64,000 nt of DNA from Octopus vulgaris. Taxonomy: Eukaryota. Numbering within the stretch: position 1 is the first letter of the stretch; the number at the start of each line of letters is the position of its first letter. Shown in pieces: positions 4,410 through 38,878 of the stretch. Below the pieces are notes generated by a model. It worked only from the letters and a program-made list of their open reading frames with translations. It had not been told where the DNA came from and did not search any database. The position numbers were made by a program, and so were the translations under genes. The stretch covers positions 83,266,001-83,330,000 of the forward strand of contig OX597814.1 of NCBI GenBank assembly GCA_951406725.2, in the 5' to 3' direction.

Positions 4410-5219
4410 GGTAATCTTTATATCCAACTTAGCATGAATGTCTTGTTAGAGCACTGAATAGTGCATCATTAACCTTGAGAGATCCTCTCATATAGGTGCT
4501 TGGTGCATACAAGTACACACACCAGTTATAGAAGACAAGAATTGTCTTGTCATGGTTGCTGGAATCCCCATATCACATGATTTCACTTAACTGAAAATCA
4601 TCAGTGGGAAGTGTCTGGTCACCACATGCCAGTCAAATCTGACTGCTACAATATATTGAATACCAGTAGCTTTTCAGACACTGTTGTCGTAAATACCCAG
4701 CAGGCTTATCAAAAATTAATTACCTGCAACAGAAGCAGTATTAATACAAAATGGTAATCTTTCTATCCAACTTAAAATGGATGTCTTGTTAGAACACTGA
4801 ATACTGTGTTATTAGCCTCAGAAGATCCTCTCAAAATAGGCGCTATGATTTATGTGTGTGTTTTTATGTTCCAGGTGCCTATTAATACCTTTTGGTATAA
4901 ATGCTGATTCTGTCACTAATAATTAATTTTTGATAAGCCTGCTGGCTATTTGTGACATTAGTGTCTGAAAAGAAGCTCATATTTTATATATTGAAGCAAG
5001 ATTCGACCTCTGATGATTTCCAGTTGAATGAAATCACATGGCATGACAGACAGTCCTCATCTGCTATGATCTATGTGCGTGCTTTTATGCACCAAGCACC
5101 TATATAAGAGGATCTCTCAAGACTAATAATGCATTATTCAGTGTTCTAACAAGACATCCTTATTAAGTTGGATATAAAGATTACATTATTTTGGTATTAA
5201 TACTGCTGCTGTCGCTGAT

Positions 5220-5271: not shown

Positions 5272-6362
5272 TCATCATCATTTAACGCCCGCTTTCCATG
5301 CTAGCATGGGTTGGACGGTTCAACTGGGGTCTGGGGAGCCCGAAAGCTGCACCAGTCCAGTCAGATCTGGCAGTGTTTCTACAGCTGGATGCCCTTCCTA
5401 ACGCCAACCACTCCGAGAGTGTAGTGGGTGATTTTATGTGCCACCGGCACAGGTGCCAGACGAGGCTGGCAAACGGCCACGCTCGGATGGTGTTTTTTAT
5501 GTGCCACCGACACAGGTGCCAGACGAGGCTGGCAGACGGCCACGCTCGGATGGTGTTTTTATGTGCCACCGACACAGGTGCCAGATGAGGCTGGCAAACG
5601 GCCACGATCGGATGGTGTTTGTTACGTGCCCACAGCACGGAGACCAGTCGATGCGGTACTGGCTACGGCCACGTTCGGATGGTTTTCTTGTGTGCCACGT
5701 GCCACCGGCACTGGTACCACAAAGATACAAATTCCATTGATGTTCATCTATTTTGATTTGTTTTGATTTGATTTTCACTTGCCTCAACAGGTCTTCACAA
5801 GTGTCACAAGAAGGAAGGTATGCACAGGTGGACTGACTACGTCCCAGGTAGGGGCCACAGGTTATGGCCTGACTAGTCTTGCCGGGTCTTCGGATGGTGT
5901 TTTTATGTGCCACCGACACAGGTGCCAGATGAGGCTGGCGAACGACCACGATCGGATGGTGTTTGTTACGTGCCCACAGCACGGAGGCCAGTCGGTGCAG
6001 TACTGGCTACGGCCACGTTCGGATGGTTTTCTTGTGTGCCACTGGCACTGGTACCACAAAGATACAATTCCATTAATGTTCATCTATTTTGATTTGTTTT
6101 GATTTGTTTTGATTTGATTTGATTTCATTTCATTTTGATTTTCACTTGCCTCAACAGGCCTTCACAAGTATCACAAGGAGGAAGGTATGCACAGGTGGAC
6201 TGACTACGTCCCAGGTAGGGGCCATGGGATATGGCCTGACTAGTCTTGCAGGGTCTTCGGATGGTGTTTTTATGTGCCACCGACACAGGTGCTAGATGAG
6301 GCTGGCGAACGGCCACGATCGGATGGTGTTTGTTATGTGCCCACAGCACGATGGCCAGTCGA
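5268..6362 (-). mobile_element. Young RTE LINE 3'UTR with internal ~62-bp repeats and a ~345-bp higher-order tandem duplication
   Basis: Nearly identical to 35500-35977; (ATC)n tail at 5268-5281; block 5553-5895 repeats at 5896-6262 and partially at 6263-6362. Confidence 0.9.
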
Positions 6363-22714: not shown

Positions 22715-22865
22715 CTAACTTCCTGTAACTCTCTTCTGTTGTTGATATTTGGTTTCCTTTGGTGTATGAGGATGGCCTCAGAAATTCTAAAGTTGCCCCT
22801 GTTCCACTGTGTTGCCTTGATGAGCACTGTGAGTTCCCGGATCTGGCATTTCTGTTTCTTCACAG
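22715..22865 (-). pseudogene. C-terminal GIY-YIG remnant of a second Penelope-like family
   Basis: Minus strand FRISEAILIHQRKPNINNRRE matches the PLE terminal motif ExxxIxxxxPxxN. Confidence 0.5.
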
Positions 22866-22867
22866 AA

Positions 22868-23890
22868 ACACACCAAGCTCTCCATTCCCTACTTCCAATT
22901 CCTCCGTCTGTGCAGGCTCTGCAGTGACAACCATGACTTTGAGACTCAGTCTCAACTCATGGCTCGCCACTTCATCCTTCGTGGATATCCCCTTACCACT
23001 ATCTACACCACCCTTAGCAGAGCATATTCCGTGGACTGTGCCTCTGCCCTCTCTCTTCATATCCACCCCGCTGTTGCCCGTTTCCTCTCACCTACCACCC
23101 CTCCACCTTGCCCTCCAATGCACTATTCTCTGAGCCTTCTGGTGACACTAGTCTGACCCCTCCACTTCACACATCTTCCCCAACCTACCCCTTCTCTCTT
23201 TCAAATGAACCCACAAGCTACGTGACCTCCGAGTTCACAGTTTCTTCCCTAACTCCACCTCCCAACCTGGCTCATTCTGCTGCTCCTGCCCATGCTGTCA
23301 CACTTGCCCCTACCTTTCCAATACCACCATCCTCACAGGCATCTATCATCATCTCTATCATATCACTGGCTCCTTTACCTGCAGTTCTAGCAATGTCTTT
23401 TACTGCATCTCCTGCTCTTTCTGTCCTTCTCTGTACATGGGTCAAACAGGACACCAGTTGGCTGACCAGTTCACGGAGCACCTCCAAGACATTAGACTCG
23501 ACAATGACAACCCAGTCTCACACCATTTCTGCTCTACTGGTCATTCATTACAACACCTGTCTGTGTTCAGACTGTTTTTGCACAGGAGCTATCCAGACTC
23601 CCGCCTTCACCATGAACAGAAATTAATCTTCTCACTTCACTCCTTTGTGCCACATGGGCTCAACTCCCCTCCACTCTTCATCTGACTCCTCTCCTCATCT
23701 GACACCTACTTCCTCTCTTTACTTCTACCCACCTCTCCTCTCTCGCCCTGACACCTAAGTCCTCTCTTCACTCCTACCCACCTTCCCCCTTCATTGATAC
23801 CCCCTCCATCCACACCCCAGCCTCCACATATCTAGCCCCTACACCTACATCCTCACCCAACCACGCATCGCATTTAGGCTAAATCCCAGC
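22868..23890 (+). mobile_element. Penelope-like element (Neptune-type) 3' part: RT thumb, Cys-linker, GIY-YIG endonuclease; frameshifted
   Basis: HTKLSIPYFQFLRLCRLCSD..F..RGYP; FTCSSSNVFYCISCSFCPSLYMGQTGHQLADQFTEHLQDIR..PVSHHF..EQKLIFSLHSFVPHGLN* (stop at 23685); pyrimidine-rich 3' region. Confidence 0.9.
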
Positions 23891-28300: not shown

Positions 28301-28361
<61 letters not shown>

Positions 28362-28367
<6 letters not shown>

Positions 28368-28538
28368 CATATCACATTGAAAACAACGGTTCTTGTTCGA
28401 TCATCGAAGTTAAGCATCATTGAGCCTCGTTAGTACTTAGACGGGTGACAGCTTGGGAAGCCTACATGCTGTAAACATATTTCAATCCTTTCAAGGTGGT
28501 GCTCTAGCATGACCACAGTCCAATGACTGAAACTAGTA

Positions 28539-28594: not shown

Positions 28595-28749
28595 ATGGAG
28601 AGGAATTGTACAAAATGTATAAATAGATGATGACTAAAGCACTCGCACAGTTTCAATTACCTGTTGTTATCCTCAGTGAAGACAATAACAACATTGCACA
28701 TCTATATCTATATCTATCTATATCTATATATTTATATATATATATATAT

Positions 28750-29045
28750 AATAATAAATATTAGGGAATAAATCCAAATTTACAGGGAAAAATCAGATTT
28801 AGGATTGAATCCAATTTTATAGTAAAATATAATATAATATTAATTAGAGACAAAACCACTATTATGCAAATCAAACAAAGAAAGACTCAATCCAATACAT
28901 AAAAAATTTTATATAAATTTAATATAATTAAGATATCCACTACGATCGTTTCTTGTCACTTCTATGGACATTCATCAGGTGGTTTCAAGACCTTCTATGC
29001 AATTTTGAACTATAATTAATATTATATTATATTTTACTATAAATA
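28750..29045 (-). mobile_element. ~295-bp non-coding hammerhead-bearing element anchored in (TA)n
   Basis: Contains the hammerhead below; internal inverted repeat 28816-28845 / 29014-29043; a related end recurs at 38715-38790. Confidence 0.65.
28937..28982 (-). ncRNA. Minimal type I hammerhead ribozyme
   Basis: Minus strand ccac-CTGATGA-a-tgtc-catagaagt-gaca-a-GAAAC-gatc-GTA-gtgg: full core, stems I and II, palindromic stem III ACGATCGT, GUA cleavage triplet. Confidence 0.85.
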
Positions 29046-29411
29046 TATGTATGTACTCAGTTCTCGAGTTCAGGTGGAATGTACATACCACACACAATGC
29101 ACTCCGGCGTTGCGTGGGTCATTGATAACAATAACACCATGACCAACTGGTATTGCAGTACATGTCTCTGATAAGGAAAAATTGATTTGAAATCGTACCA
29201 ATCAGTGAACACGGTGTGTGTCCTGACTAATGAAGGGACATGCACCATGGACAGACTCATGTGTATGTGACCTTAATTTGCCCTCACATAGATGTGCAAT
29301 GTTGTTGTCTTGTTTTCCTTTGCACCACCTGCGTTATAGTACATGCTCAACCACTGTGAAAAATAAGGAGATTGTACAAAATCCTTTCAAACTTTGAGGG
29401 TTATGGAATGA

Positions 29412-30902
29412 ATAATAGGCATGAATATATACTAATAATGGTAAGCAACTTTGCATAAACTGGATTGAATAAAGAGAAAAATGTTAAAGGCAAAAAAGCT
29501 TGAACGGTTTGAGTCATTTCTTCACGTCTTTACCACACTTCAACGAATTATAGGCTCTTACTGTCCTTAATCCTTAGGGAAATTTATTGAATTTAAACCC
29601 GAGAAGGATCCTTTGGTATTCCTGAGTCATTTGCTACCAAGAAAATCTGCATAGACAAATTGTTTTCTGTAGTAGTGCCAGAAGCAATCACAATACTTCA
29701 GACATTATTTAATCAAGAAATACTGAAGACATTCACATTGGCAGTTTAGTTGTGGCACAAAGGCCATTATTGACAGAAAATGTGCCAATAATTGTTCCAA
29801 AAAGCATGTTTTTTGGTCATTTTGCATTGACAAATAGGGTTTTTGTGCATCACAAATGCACTCATAACACTCCTTGTACACTGCTGCATATTTTGACAGC
29901 AAAAACATTAAAATTGGCTATGTAGATTGGAAGCAAATCAAAATATTGCCCCAAAAGACCTCAGAATTGTGCTGCCAAACCTCATTTTCAAGGGGGGTTT
30001 TTTTGTAGTAAAAAAGAGTTGTTGTGCAAAGAACATACTTCATTTAGTAGCCAAAAGATTACTGAATCTTTTGATACCTCATACGTCAAAATTGATTAGT
30101 CAGTTTTTGAATCCACAAGGAACATACACACCACACACAGACACACACACATTCACAAACTCTATCATACATATAGATAATAGGTATGAATATATACTAG
30201 TAACGATAAGCAACTTTGTATAAATTGAGTTGAATAAAGAGAAAAATGTTAAAGGCAAACGCTTGAACGAATATAAGCTCTTACTGTGCTTAATCCTTAA
30301 AGAAAATTTTGTTGGATTTAAACCCAAGAATACTCTTTTGGCATTACTGAGTCATTTTCTACCAAGAAAATCTACATAGACGAATTGTTTTCAGTAGTTA
30401 TGCCAGAACACAGTTCATTAATAAATTTTCTGTTGAAAAATAGGGCTTTGTGCAAAGAAATGGTATCACAATACTTCAAAGACATTGTTTAATCATGGCA
30501 TACCGAAGACATTCACATTGGCAGTTTAGTTGTGGCACAAAGGCCATTATTGGTAAAAAATGTGCTGGTAAGTGTTCCAAAAGCATGTATTTTAGTCATT
30601 CATAACACTCCTTGTACATTGCTGCATATTATGATGCCAAAAACATTAAAATTGGCAATGCAGATTGGAAGCAACTCCAAATATTGCCCAAAAATTACCT
30701 CAAAATTGTGACCTGACCTTGTTTTCAAGGTTATTTTTGTAGTAAAAAAGAGTTGTCATGCAAAAAACATACTTCATTTGGTAGCTGAAAGATTACTGAA
30801 TCTCATAATATCACATACATCAAAATCAGCAATTCAGTTTCTGAATCCATAAGGAACATATGTACCACACACAGACACACACACACAAACTTTGTTTTAT
30901 AT

Positions 30903-30905
<3 letters not shown>
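29412..30905. repeat. Two diverged tandem copies of a ~765-bp unit, possibly non-autonomous Helitron-like
   Basis: ATAATAGG(C/T)ATGAATATATACTA.TAA.G.TAAGCAACTTTG at 29412 and 30177; both end in (CA)-rich + TATAT. Confidence 0.8.
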
Positions 30906-30954
<49 letters not shown>

Positions 30955-35499: not shown

Positions 35500-38400
35500 A
35501 TCATCATCATCATCATCATCGTTTAACGTCCGCTTTCCATGCTAGCATGGGTTGGACGGTTCAACTGGGGTCTGGGAAGCCCGAAGGCTGCACCAGGCCA
35601 GTCAGATGTGGCAGTGTTTCTACAGCTGGATGCCCTTCCTAACGCCAACCACTCCGAGAGTGTAGTGGGTGATTTTATGTGCCACCGACACAGGTGCCAG
35701 ACGAGGCTGGCAGACGGCCACGCTCGGATGGTGTTTTTTATGTGCCACCGACACAGGTGCCAGACGAGGCTGGCAGACGGCCACGCTCGGATGGTGTTTT
35801 CTTATGTGTCACCGACACAGGTGCCAGACGAGGCTGGCGGACGGCCACACTCGGATGGTGTTTGTTACGTGCCCTCAGCACGGAGGCCAGTCATTGCGGT
35901 ACTGGCTACGGTCACGTTCGGATGGTTTTCTTATGTGCCACCGGCACTGGTACCACAAGGATACAAATTCCATTGATCGAGTAAGTACACTGACATTACA
36001 CATCCATCGGAGCATACTGGCTTCGTTCCTCACGAGCTTATGCATGTCCTCAGCAGTCACGGCCCATGTTTCACTGCCATGTAGCATAGCTGTTCGTACA
36101 CATGCATCATACAGTCTGCCTTTTACTCTGAGCGAGAGGCCTTTAGTCACCAGCAGAGGTAAGAGCTCCCTAAACTTTGCCCAGGCTATTCTTATTCTAG
36201 CAGTTACACTTTCAGCGCACCCACCCCCACTACTGACTTGGTCACCTAGATAGCGGAAGCTATCAACTACTTCTAGTTTTTCCCCCCGGAAAGTGACAGA
36301 AGTTGTTTTCTGCAGATTTTCGGAGGTCAATGCTCCAGAGCACCTGCCACATACAAAAACTATCTTCCCAGTTAGCCTACCTTTGACATTGCTGCACCTC
36401 TTATGTGTCCATAGCTTACACTGGGTACATCTTATAGAGTTTCTACCTACACCTTTTCTACAGATCGAGCAGGGCCATCTTCCTGAGGATATTTGTGGGT
36501 TTTCTACCTTTCTACTTATTAGTACTTTGGTTTTAGCTAGGTTGACTCTAAGGCCCCTCGATTCTAAACCCTCCTTCCACACCTGGAACTTCTCCTCCAG
36601 TTCTGATAGTGACTCAGCGATTAGAGCGAGGTCGTCAGCATAGAGGAGCTCCCAGGGGCAACCTGTCTTGAATTCCTCCGTTATTGCCTGGAGGACTATG
36701 ATAAATAGGAGGGGGCTGAGTACTGAACCCTGGTGGACCCCAACCTCTACTTTGAATTCTTCTGTGTACATGTTGCCAACTCTAACCTTACTTACGGCAT
36801 CTCTGTACATGGCTTGCACAGCCCTCACCAGCCATTCATCTATCCCTAGTTTCCTCATTGACCACCAGATGAGGGATCGGGGGACCCTATCAAAGGCTTT
36901 CTCCATGTCAACGAAAGCCAGGTACAGGGGCTTATCCTTGGCTAGGTATTTCTCCTGCAGCTGCCTTACCAGGAATATAGCATCAGTGGTGCTTTTCCCT
37001 GGGACAAACCCAAACTGCATCTCATCTAAACTAACTCTCTCTCTAATTAGTTGGGCTATGACCCTCTCCGTAACCTTCATTACCTGATCCAACAGCTTAA
37101 TACCTCTGTAATTATTTGTATCCAGGGCATCACCTTTACCTTTGTAGCAGTTGACTAGTATGCTGCTACACCAGTCATTGGGTATGACTCCTTCGTGTAT
37201 CACCTGGTTGACTATACGGGTGACTAGGTTATAGCCGACACTGCCAGATATTTTGAGCATCTCTGCAGTAATTCCTGATGGGCCTGGGGCTTTCCCTGTC
37301 TTCATGCTTCTAATTGCCTTAGCTACCACGGAACTATCAACTCGGATAGCTGGTCCCTCTGTTGGGTCAACATTTGGCAGACTCTCTTTATCCCATTCAT
37401 TTTCTTTATTCAGCAAACTTTCATAGTGGCATCTCCAAACCTCTCTCTTTGCATCCTCATTTAGCGCAAGTGAACCATCATCCATGCAAACACACTTCTC
37501 TCCTACCACATCACGATTCTCTCTCACACACTGTCTTGCAACACGAAATACCTCAAGTCTTTCATCCTCACGGCTCAGAACATTGGCAAATTTTTTCTTA
37601 TCCGCTTCCCCTCTGGCTAAATAAACCTGTCTCCTAGCTTCCCTTTTGGCTGTCTGATACAATTCCCTGCTACCACCGTTCTTCCAGTCCTTCCAAGCCT
37701 GTCTCTTTTGTCTAATAGCCCCGTCAACCACCGTGTTCCACCACCATGTAACTCTGGGTCGAGATGGTACTTTGCTCCATCCACAGATCTGGTCAGTGGC
37801 TGTCAGCAGATTGTCCCGTAGGAATCTCCAGTTGTCTTCCACATTAAGTGGAGCTATATCCCCTTCTATTTCGTCAAAGGCTTCGAGTAGTATGTCTCTA
37901 AATCTCTGTCCATTTGCAGGATCTTTAAGCTTCCAGACCCTTCTCCTCCAAGCTGGTCTTCTTCTGGGCAACCATTTAGCTCTGATCCTGAAGTCGCTAA
38001 CTACTAATCTATGTTGGGGAGTACATTCTTCGCCTGGGAAGGTTTTGGCATTTATAATCAGCCCTCTTTCCCTTTTTCTGGCAAGGATGTAGTCAATCTG
38101 GCTGGTGTGTCTGCCAGAACGGTAGGTGACTAGGTGAGAGGTGGGTTTCCTGAAGTGGGTATTGCAGACCATAAGGTCATTTGCATCGCAGAACTCCAGC
38201 AGCCTGGTTCCCTCCTCATTTCGAGAGCCAAAACCGTGGCCTCCATGGATGCCATGGAAGCCCCTGACATGTCGTCCAACATGTCCATTGAAATCACCTG
38301 CCACGAAGAGAAGGTCACTGTCATTTGTCAATGAGGTAGTCCGCAATAGGGTGTCATAGAATTGGTCTTTTTGTCCTTCCGGTAGCCCTGGTTGAGGGGC

Positions 38401-38715
38401 ATATGCCGAGATGATGGTAGCTGTCCTATGGTGAAGAACTAATCTAATTTTAATTACTCTGTCACTTACTCTGACTACCTCGATTACCTTACCTATCCAT
38501 TTCTCCGCAAGAAGTATACCCACGCCCCCGACTCCGTCAATGTTCCCTGCCCAGAAAATCTTGTACCTGTGTTCCTTGCCCGTGAGGAGCCTAGCAGAAC
38601 CTCCTCTCCACCTTACTTCCTGGATACAGCATACATCCACACGTCTCCGTTCAAGCAGCTCTACAATCTCTCCAGACCTACCTTTCAATGTGGCAACGTT
38701 GAGCGCGCCAACTCT
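35500..38715 (-). mobile_element. Young RTE-clade LINE, 5'-truncated, with an internal deletion joining the ORF to the 3'UTR
   Basis: Long ORF plus 3'UTR repeats and (GAT)n tail; CpGs retained. Confidence 0.97.
35875..38688 (-). CDS. RTE ORF: apurinic-like endonuclease + reverse transcriptase + PHD-like zinc finger (937 aa; last ~34 aa are read-through into the 3'UTR)
   Basis: APE motifs IQEVRW, SAYAPQ, GDFNGHVG, QIDYIL, QHRLV; RT motifs NYRGIKLL, QFGF, FVDMEKAFDRV, GVHQGSVLSPLLF, LLYADD, FRYLG; CSIC..CTQC..HKRC..CGRC. Confidence 0.95.
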   Translation of the reverse strand: MKGRSGEIVELLERRRVDVCCIQEVRWRGGSARLLTGKEHRYKIFWAGNIDGVGGVGILLAEKWIGKVIEVVRVSDRVIKIRLVLHHRTATIISAYAPQPGLPEGQKDQFYDTLLRTTSLTNDSDLLFVAGDFNGHVGRHVRGFHGIHGGHGFGSRNEEGTRLLEFCDANDLMVCNTHFRKPTSHLVTYRSGRHTSQIDYILARKRERGLIINAKTFPGEECTPQHRLVVSDFRIRAKWLPRRRPAWRRRVWKLKDPANGQRFRDILLEAFDEIEGDIAPLNVEDNWRFLRDNLLTATDQICGWSKVPSRPRVTWWWNTVVDGAIRQKRQAWKDWKNGGSRELYQTAKREARRQVYLARGEADKKKFANVLSREDERLEVFRVARQCVRENRDVVGEKCVCMDDGSLALNEDAKREVWRCHYESLLNKENEWDKESLPNVDPTEGPAIRVDSSVVAKAIRSMKTGKAPGPSGITAEMLKISGSVGYNLVTRIVNQVIHEGVIPNDWCSSILVNCYKGKGDALDTNNYRGIKLLDQVMKVTERVIAQLIRERVSLDEMQFGFVPGKSTTDAIFLVRQLQEKYLAKDKPLYLAFVDMEKAFDRVPRSLIWWSMRKLGIDEWLVRAVQAMYRDAVSKVRVGNMYTEEFKVEVGVHQGSVLSPLLFIIVLQAITEEFKTGCPWELLYADDLALIAESLSELEEKFQVWKEGLESRGLRVNLAKTKVLISRKVENPQISSGRWPCSICRKGVGRNSIRCTQCKLWTHKRCSNVKGRLTGKIVFVCGRCSGALTSENLQKTTSVTFRGEKLEVVDSFRYLGDQVSSGGGCAESVTARIRIAWAKFRELLPLLVTKGLSLRVKGRLYDACVRTAMLHGSETWAVTAEDMHKLVRNEASMLRWMCNVSVLTRSMEFVSLWYQCRWHIRKPSERDRSQYRNDWPPC

Positions 38716-38843
38716 AGGGAATATTATTCCAAACTTACAGGGAATAATTCAATTTAGAAATACTAAATCAAATTTCACAAAATATAATATATATATATAT
38801 ATATATAAATTAGAATTGATAAAAGGTGTTTTTTTCCAATTTT

Positions 38844-38878
<35 letters not shown>

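Follow-up and report, generated by a model that had tools for sequence, protein, structure and literature searches.

Introduction

Penelope-like elements of the Hydra clade are recognized by a DKT motif, a CxCx5C linker, the lack of a CCHH motif, and CxxC and CxH motifs placed around an E and an N (Craig et al. 2021, PMC8557442). Passages of the same article describe an inverted 5ʹ copy and an optional tail for Penelope-like elements, and these passages describe neither an intron nor spliced copies for Hydra. Why Penelope-like elements retain introns is described there as unexplained (PMC8557442); one proposal invokes an antisense template for both intron retention and head-to-head palindromes (PMC3846280). 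In Drosophila virilis, the terminal repeat of Penelope contains an intron preceded by the start site and an exon of 46 nt; splicing affects most transcripts, and it has been suggested that copies without the intron are selected against (PMC2377424). This intron ends at hammerhead helix I, and minimal Penelope-type hammerheads are reported to cut poorly and as dimers (PMC4209133). The enzyme of PAc, a Poseidon element of the anole Anolis carolinensis, primes internally in vitro at two sites that define the tail and uses uncut RNA, and the PAc hammerhead needs protein (PMC11167929). Retrozymes occur mostly as head-to-tail repeats and yield circles (PMC7229834; bioRxiv 10.64898/2026.07.22.740005). 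Terminal-repeat hammerheads, inverted arms, tails, octopus Hydra elements and a terminal-repeat origin of retrozymes are already published (PMC4209133; PMC8557442; PMC7229834; bioRxiv 10.64898/2026.07.22.740005).

The element examined here lies in a 64,000-nt stretch of the Octopus vulgaris genome (contig OX597814.1), which we call the window (Table 1). It very probably combines exon 1 with the hammerhead exon of a Hydra-clade Penelope-like element, and is likely a processed copy of the 5ʹ end of the capped, spliced RNA of that element, likely produced by internal priming of the element's own reverse transcriptase at a nicked (TA)n tract. With the Hydra clade, including Hydra-1_Obim of Octopus bimaculoides (PMC8557442), the parent shares a C-terminal GIY-YIG-type domain, (TA)n targets, a hammerhead, inverted 5ʹ copies and an optional tail. 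It departs from typical Hydra elements in carrying KWK rather than RWK, an Asn-rich insert, a tail of 76 nt instead of 30-40 nt, and a unit of 6.0-6.8 kb that contains introns. As in D. virilis Penelope, a putative start site, a short exon 1 and a spliceosomal intron just before helix I all reside in the terminal repeat (PMC2377424, PMC4209133); however, the Drosophila element is described as keeping its 75-nt intron in the genome, whereas the octopus intron measures 0.9-1.8 kb and is lost from most short copies. AT-rich targets and a hammerhead upstream of the priming sites are shared with PAc, as would be two internal priming sites that define the tail and an uncut RNA template. The PAc hammerhead overlaps the ORF start, whereas the octopus ORF begins ~220 nt after the cut site, and RNA ends at the cut site are absent in the PAc account, whereas octopus genomic 5ʹ ends pile up near the cut. 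Metazoan non-LTR retrozymes are likewise short AT-rich repeats with a type I hammerhead and kinship to Penelope terminal repeats, but the octopus copies are head-to-head or single, have a fixed start upstream of the hammerhead, and appear to be made afresh from masters.

Table 1. Features of the short hammerhead-bearing insertion and its surroundings (window coordinates)
Feature	Position	Strand	Basis or remark
(TA)n/(TAGA)n target microsatellite	28703..28750	.	
Exon 2 to 3ʹ insertion end: terminal-repeat core with hammerhead, AT-rich spacer and tail	28751..28991	-	243-nt match
Tail of ~76 nt, inner to outer end site	28751..28826	-	In masters continues into 5ʹ UTR and ORF
Inner priming/end site	28816..28827	-	Most tail-less arms stop at 28827; arm of the window copy at ~28816
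Minimal type I hammerhead	28937..28982	-	Active as a dimer by prediction; 10.1/11.1 is A·A
Predicted cleavage site after GUA	28940..28941	-	Sequence; genomic 5ʹ ends in excess at -6..+14
8-nt palindrome, intermolecular stem III	28942..28949	-	Central-pair variation and cofolding
Exon 1/exon 2 junction; 1116-nt GT-AG intron of L063 (6282-7397) missing	28991..28992	-	Comparison with L063
Remaining part of exon 1, nt +6 to +27 of 27 nt	28992..29013	-	Identical to L063:6260-6281, which GTACGT follows
Inverted 5ʹ arm, 30-nt opposite-orientation copy of 28816-28845	29014..29043	+	Specific to the window insertion; accounts for the seeming closing stem
Truncated inverted copy of a sister family, with related tail	38715..38850	-	Abuts RTE LINE; separate from the window insertion

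A minimal hammerhead motif conserved among octopus copies

The initial annotation described a textbook, canonical type I hammerhead with a palindromic stem III on the minus strand of the window. The type, the strand and the palindrome were borne out, as were the core (CUGAUGA and GAAA) and the stems, which include a 4-bp stem I (CCAC/GUGG) and a 4-bp stem II (UGUC/GACA) closed by a 9-nt loop. The word 'canonical' does not hold, given that A·A occupies positions 10.1/11.1 where the canonical motif has a G10.1-C11.1 pair. A strict hammerhead descriptor gave a single match in the window and none in 300 Markov resamples. The Rfam search that had been proposed as a check returned no hammerhead, either at the gathering score across the whole window or at E<=10 within 28700-29100. 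The A·A apposition and this null result weaken the canonical label but not the description as a minimal Penelope-type hammerhead, whose marks, a 4-bp stem I and a palindromic stem III that allows dimerization, are both present.

We compared 20 natural variants of the motif, all from the O. vulgaris genome. The type I marks (a CUGANGA and GAAA core, an NUH cut site and stems I-III) are present; core and stems are invariant in all 20, whereas loop 2 and the flanks vary. Of the cells, 94.6% are paired, and a shuffle control gave 1/500, a value that according to the tool is not a probability. The central pair of the stem III palindrome is G-C in 10 variants, A-U in seven and G-U in three, which is a compensatory change. 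Positions 10.1/11.1 can pair as U-A (4/20) or A-U (3/20) and are unpaired in the remaining 13. As a monomer, the hammerhead fold (-2.0 kcal/mol) is less stable than an alternative (-6.5 kcal/mol), and the minimum free energy structure is not a hammerhead, whereas the best homodimer fold (-21.2 kcal/mol) contains stems I and II together with an 8-bp intermolecular stem III. With an invariant core, a compensatory change in stem III and a predicted dimer fold, this is a genuine motif under selection, and its cleavage is predicted.

A copy-specific inverted arm and the neighbouring sequence

The element had been described as a self-closing unit of ~295 nt without an ORF that abuts (TA)n. No ORF was found in it, and (TA)n indeed adjoins its 3ʹ end, but the forward unit spans only 263 nt (29013-28751, minus strand). 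The complementarity that would close the transcript also exists: the 30-nt arm pairs with its source segment (fold z = -4.6), and when the arm is removed no terminal closing helix of that kind forms. It is nevertheless not a property of the unit. Most of the best 30 copies carry a head-to-head inverted arm whose length differs from copy to copy (35-190 nt in copies other than that of the window), and nearly all of these arms stop at the equivalent of window position 28827 and then run into (TA)n. The closing stem is a copy-specific by-product of integration.

Short copies in general finish at either of two fixed sites separated by 76 nt, and they mostly form head-to-head pairs within (TA)n. 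Within a chromosome-1 sample of 67 insertions, obtained from the first 100 of 1644 exact matches to a motif downstream of the hammerhead, 41 combine one tailed and one tail-less arm. Two pairs of separate loci (L003/L012 and L002/L014) each have a common inversion junction, and L003/L012 share a private substitution as well, which suggests that hairpin copies now and then undergo transcription and a further round of copying. At one further locus (L017, G000:C17 ~14241575-14241684), a GC-rich stretch of ~100 nt has been captured between head-to-head arms.

A diverged relative of the 3ʹ end had been noticed at 38715-38790, and a related tail does lie at 38715-38796 (75% identity over 85 nt). A search with this tail gave 324 candidates, 40 of which were scored, at 96-100%. 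The sister family thus sampled (38715-38850 and L253-L271) has the same inverted layout, with a variable (TA)n within the unit at the inner end site; neither a hammerhead nor an ORF was found for it. Two other Hydra families (L246, L247) were considered as the source of the tail at 38715 and rejected, as they do not have it. The tail adjoins the truncated 5ʹ end of an RTE-type LINE with a 957-aa open frame (35875-38748, minus strand). Elsewhere in the window are a 5S rRNA-like sequence within (TA)n (28359-28477, plus strand, 58.5 bits), likely a 5S-derived SINE or pseudogene, and two adjoining direct copies of ~780 nt with 71% identity (29412-30927).

An ORF-bearing parent of the Hydra clade

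Widely spaced pairs among 166 exact matches to the core led to two parents, L062 and L063, in which copies of a 243-nt module flank an ORF encoding reverse transcriptase together with a GIY-YIG-type domain. The module in the window is 98.8% identical to that of L062 and 96.7% identical to that of L063. The element was rightly called Penelope-type. Over 243 nt it matches, at 97-99% identity, the terminal repeat of Hydra-clade elements that bear an ORF, and the genome-wide copy search suggested at the outset does link it to such an ORF.

A sister subfamily preserves open frames of 821-862 aa, exemplified by L233 (837 aa). In this protein DKG is changed to DKT at residue 128, a Hydra-clade mark, the CxCx5C linker reads CTCRDKSNC at 688, the nuclease lacks CCHH and has a single Cys between VVY and YIG, and CYLC at 794 (CxxC) and CRH at 823 (CxH) flank an E and an N. 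KWK at residue 43 aligns with RWK or RWR of homologues, and the protein as a whole aligns, by eye, with the Hydra alignment in the supplement of PMC8557442. Insertion into (TA)n and a hammerhead within the terminal repeat are further Hydra-clade marks of the parent, and L062, L236 and L245 display partial tandem terminal repeats, an inverted 5ʹ copy and an optional tail, the pattern of endonuclease-positive Penelope-like elements. The spliced monomer measures 2979 nt (L062) and intron-keeping monomers 6.0-6.8 kb, compared with typically <3 kb for Hydra, a size that is not diagnostic. Two of nine matches to the parent ORF are named homologues, from Octopus bimaculoides and Argonauta; Atlas feature matches were obtained at 0.93-0.97, some with RVT_1 members, and sequence searches of Pfam and PDB did not recognize the ORF. 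On its motifs, homologues and Atlas feature matches, the parent is assigned to the Hydra clade.

Several other candidates for the parent were discarded. Hydra-1_Obim has another hammerhead and another protein, and four parent motifs have no match in the supplement of PMC8557442. A GIY-YIG fragment within the window (23209-23685) has neither the tail nor the hammerhead at any of its 30 loci, and the sequence upstream of L017 is unique. The fragment belongs to a broken GIY-YIG end (22729-23685, plus strand) of another, very abundant Penelope-like family (9433 candidates) that lacks this hammerhead and tail. A tblastn search with the parent ORF found nothing else in the window.

Some additional traits of the parents were recorded. 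The Asn-rich insert of L233 (approximately residues 490-600) lies between the reverse transcriptase and the nuclease, as in rotifer Penelope ORFs (passages of PMC3846280). A strong donor-like CAG|GTAAGA at ORF codon 5 (L062:5692 and L233) makes a further intron possible. The long 3ʹ region of L240, L245 and L250 contains a duplication of the block formed by promoter and exon 1, with distances of 1.1 and 2.4 kb to the hammerhead that follows. In the ORF-bearing L062 (2780-6376), both repeats join the ORF 3ʹ UTR to the hammerhead exon, such that a 2875-nt intron is gone and the promoter is lost; this form, 1.15 units of the 2979-nt monomer, is compatible with a back-spliced or ribozyme-made circle or with a template jump.

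Exact and recurrent loss of the terminal intron

In L063 the ORF is followed by a 3ʹ UTR, a donor at 4522/4523, 1.7 kb of further sequence, a conserved block and an initiator-like A at 6255, after which come a 27-nt exon, GTACGT, an intron of 1116 nt ending in TTTTAG, and the hammerhead exon. The window copy retains 22 nucleotides of exon 1, each identical to L063, and passes from them straight into the hammerhead exon at the exact splice junction. A GT-AG intron that is precisely missing when compared with a genomic master is a mark of processed retrocopies, and the 5ʹ end of the copies lies at what we infer to be the start site.

This organization recurs among masters. The promoter matched 30 loci, and the 23 that could be parsed all share one layout: an exon of 27/28 nt, then a GT donor, an intron length of 933-1390 nt and, 9-10 nt ahead of stem I, an AG acceptor. 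Exon 1 ranges from 23 to 28 nt across master subfamilies, and spliced copies carry the exon 1 of their own subfamily. The conserved upstream block (L063:6101-6200) is 93% identical among 22 masters, which were found by a search aimed at this very block, versus ~80-90% downstream.

Spliced copies are the majority in each sample. For the window subfamily, an exact-pattern search counted by hand yielded 71 spliced junctions, 25 that keep the intron and four in which the ORF 3ʹ UTR is joined by removal of the 2875-nt intron, among the 100 junctions listed of 101. In the chromosome-1 sample, 28 of the 67 insertions reach the junction, with 21 spliced (two ambiguous cases being scored so by eye) and seven unspliced. 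For the subfamily with intact ORFs, the first 30 of 1223 exact core matches comprise 18 spliced, seven unspliced and five uninformative copies, as judged by eye; its exon 1 has 23 nt and no AG, and two donors located 4 nt apart are both found among the spliced copies. By contrast, ORF-bearing insertions mostly keep the intron (14 in addition to L063), versus L062 and the fragment L072, from which the 2875-nt intron was lost.

A tree of exon 2 (141 rows, 149 columns) is weakly resolved, yet the spliced label changes 34 times on it, with at least 16 changes forced by supported branches, and seven sets of identical rows span classes. Spliced copies were therefore made repeatedly from unspliced masters. 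The joint that lacks the 1116 nt also appears in contigs of three of four runs guessed to be RNA, in one case with ~90 nt of upstream sequence; these contigs point only weakly to spliced RNA because the joined form exists in DNA as well.

Where copies begin

Short copies begin at or just after the initiator-like A. Among 80 arms examined, 71 cross the exon junction in an ungapped mapping, and all 71 end at -5 or downstream of the A, with a mode at +1 (15 arms). As exceptions, two spliced copies extend across the promoter: L187, whose junction is imprecise, and L244, whose junction is precise. Unspliced copies were sought with exon 1 and the start of the intron, a query blind to upstream sequence, and 40 scored candidates of 176 resolved into 30 loci. 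Four of these stop within the intron and 26 reach exon 1, of which 25 continue upstream and one stops ~7-10 nt before the A; the two-by-two comparison of 5ʹ ends thus sets side by side samples drawn from different searches. A cap-derived G is not significant: among 15 cases the base preceding the A is A in seven, G in five and C in three, and the G is often explained by the inverted arm.

A second accumulation of ends occurs near the predicted hammerhead cut. The count was made per insertion, with one arm (the longest) from each of the 67, because some arms are counted twice in the per-arm data. In 38 of them the end lies in the interval from -50 to +56 around the cut, and 21 of the 38 fall within -6..+14, versus a uniform expectation of 20% (p ~1e-6; two loci were corrected by eye, and two neighbouring loci are perhaps one duplication). 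A mapping artefact was rejected as the cause, given that the bias found by simulation is minor, with 0..+14 receiving 121 of 682 mapped ends, versus 31 of 64 real arms. However, no more than two arms stop precisely at the cut, and the pile could owe something to AT-rich palindromic sequence or to pausing at the ribozyme fold. For these two reasons we rate cutting by the hammerhead in vivo cautiously, as somewhat more probable than its absence.

Origin of the short copies

The cap-binding complex aids splicing of the first intron. If the initiator-like A is the transcription start, the intron would be spliced efficiently only when its donor lies beside the cap, whereas read-through RNA that crosses the promoter would mostly keep it. 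Reverse transcriptase would prime at the tail sites near the mRNA 5ʹ end and copy ~270 nt up to the cap, and a second priming event at the inner site, or a fold-back, would create the inverted arm. Because priming is internal, spliced RNA would give rise to short copies only. Full elements would require RNA that enters the promoter from upstream, with the donor far from the cap and mostly ignored; the retention of the intron in promoter-crossing read-through RNA would thus account for its presence in ORF-bearing copies. For the long unspliced copies, a nascent or antisense template could also have served. The hammerhead would need a partner and cut only part of the RNA, so that uncut RNA yields copies like the window element and cut RNA yields copies that end near the cut site.

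We consider it moderately probable that the genome in this way records the pool of templates, with capped spliced RNA producing short promoter-less copies, read-through RNA alone producing full elements and cut RNA a third class, that intron retention reflects transcript position rather than an antisense template, and that the hammerhead cuts in the germ line. Start site, cap, RNA strand and cleavage are all deduced here from genomic copies. Certain observations pull the other way. A cap-derived G is not significant, and two spliced copies (L187, L244) cross the promoter; some short copies may have been copied again, as the shared junctions of L003/L012 and L002/L014 indicate; the best monomer fold is not a hammerhead, and 10.1/11.1 is unpaired in most variants; and for the anole element, if the analogy applies, RNA ends at the cut site were not found and uncut RNA was the main substrate (PMC11167929).

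The initial annotation placed the element in a non-autonomous Penelope-type or retrozyme family, and one could suppose that such a retrozyme- or SINE-like family lost the intron once and is now transcribed and copied alone. High copy number, near-constant length, the two shared inversion junctions, a clustering of the spliced label on the tree that exceeds shuffles, and the proposal that retrozymes derive from terminal repeats (bioRxiv 10.64898/2026.07.22.740005) would all suit this idea, but it is largely refuted and we hold it to be very unlikely. The leader is the exon 1 of the parent, and its variants follow the master of each subfamily; spliced copies are scattered through the unspliced tree, where the forced label changes make them polyphyletic; and short copies lack the conserved upstream region. 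Nor do 97 loci contain any head-to-tail repeats of unit length (the retrozyme mark, 150-450 nt), the only same-strand hammerhead pair within 700 nt being a 60-nt duplication.

Two other accounts would dispense with a capped first exon or with splicing itself. The abrupt 5ʹ limit might be a reverse transcriptase stop at a lariat branch point, with the leader being the 3ʹ end of a long upstream intron removed by recursive splicing. In the window subfamily a TTTAC fits a branch motif 27 nt before the AG/GT site, the 2875-nt intron between the ORF 3ʹ UTR donor and the same acceptor is removed in four of the 100 listed junctions, and a stop specific to spliced forms would be expected. Yet copies of the intact-ORF subfamily stop at the same A although their exon 1 has no AG at all, CATAG is CATAA in several subfamilies and exon 1 of one subfamily ends in AAT, and the copies include the A itself, which makes this account highly improbable. 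Still harder to credit is a junction formed in DNA by deletion or microhomology-driven template switching that merely mimics splicing. It could draw on the four nucleotides of microhomology (AG|GT) in the window subfamily and on the imprecise junction of L187, but the same exact GT-AG removal occurs in subfamilies without microhomology (exon 1 ending in AAT or CTT, exon 2 starting with AT), and both alternative donors have been used. A processed copy of capped, spliced RNA remains our preferred explanation.

Implications for Penelope-like elements

As a single copy, the window element is ordinary; what is new is the family-wide pattern. A search of the open literature turned up no account of plentiful spliced Penelope copies in genomes; an earlier mention may exist in subscription papers such as Arkhipova 2003 and Lünse 2017. 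The main text of an octopus repeat paper contains no occurrence of Hydra, intron or ribozyme (PMC13282606).

The keeping of introns distinguishes Penelope-like elements, and a majority of spliced copies would help to explain why retention appears constant. Exactly spliced copies residing in the usual head-to-head structures imply that spliced sense RNA is a routine template, and such mass copying argues against the antisense-template account of intron retention. The division between spliced copies that stop at the start and unspliced copies that read through constitutes a testable rule, and because intact ORFs are present in the genome, the system itself can be tested. Cutting in vivo, which was not seen in the sole element studied biochemically, is hinted at here by the excess of ends at the cut site, a rare indication of its kind. 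Many short hammerhead repeats regarded as 'solo retrozymes' or as SINE-like may likewise be processed copies.
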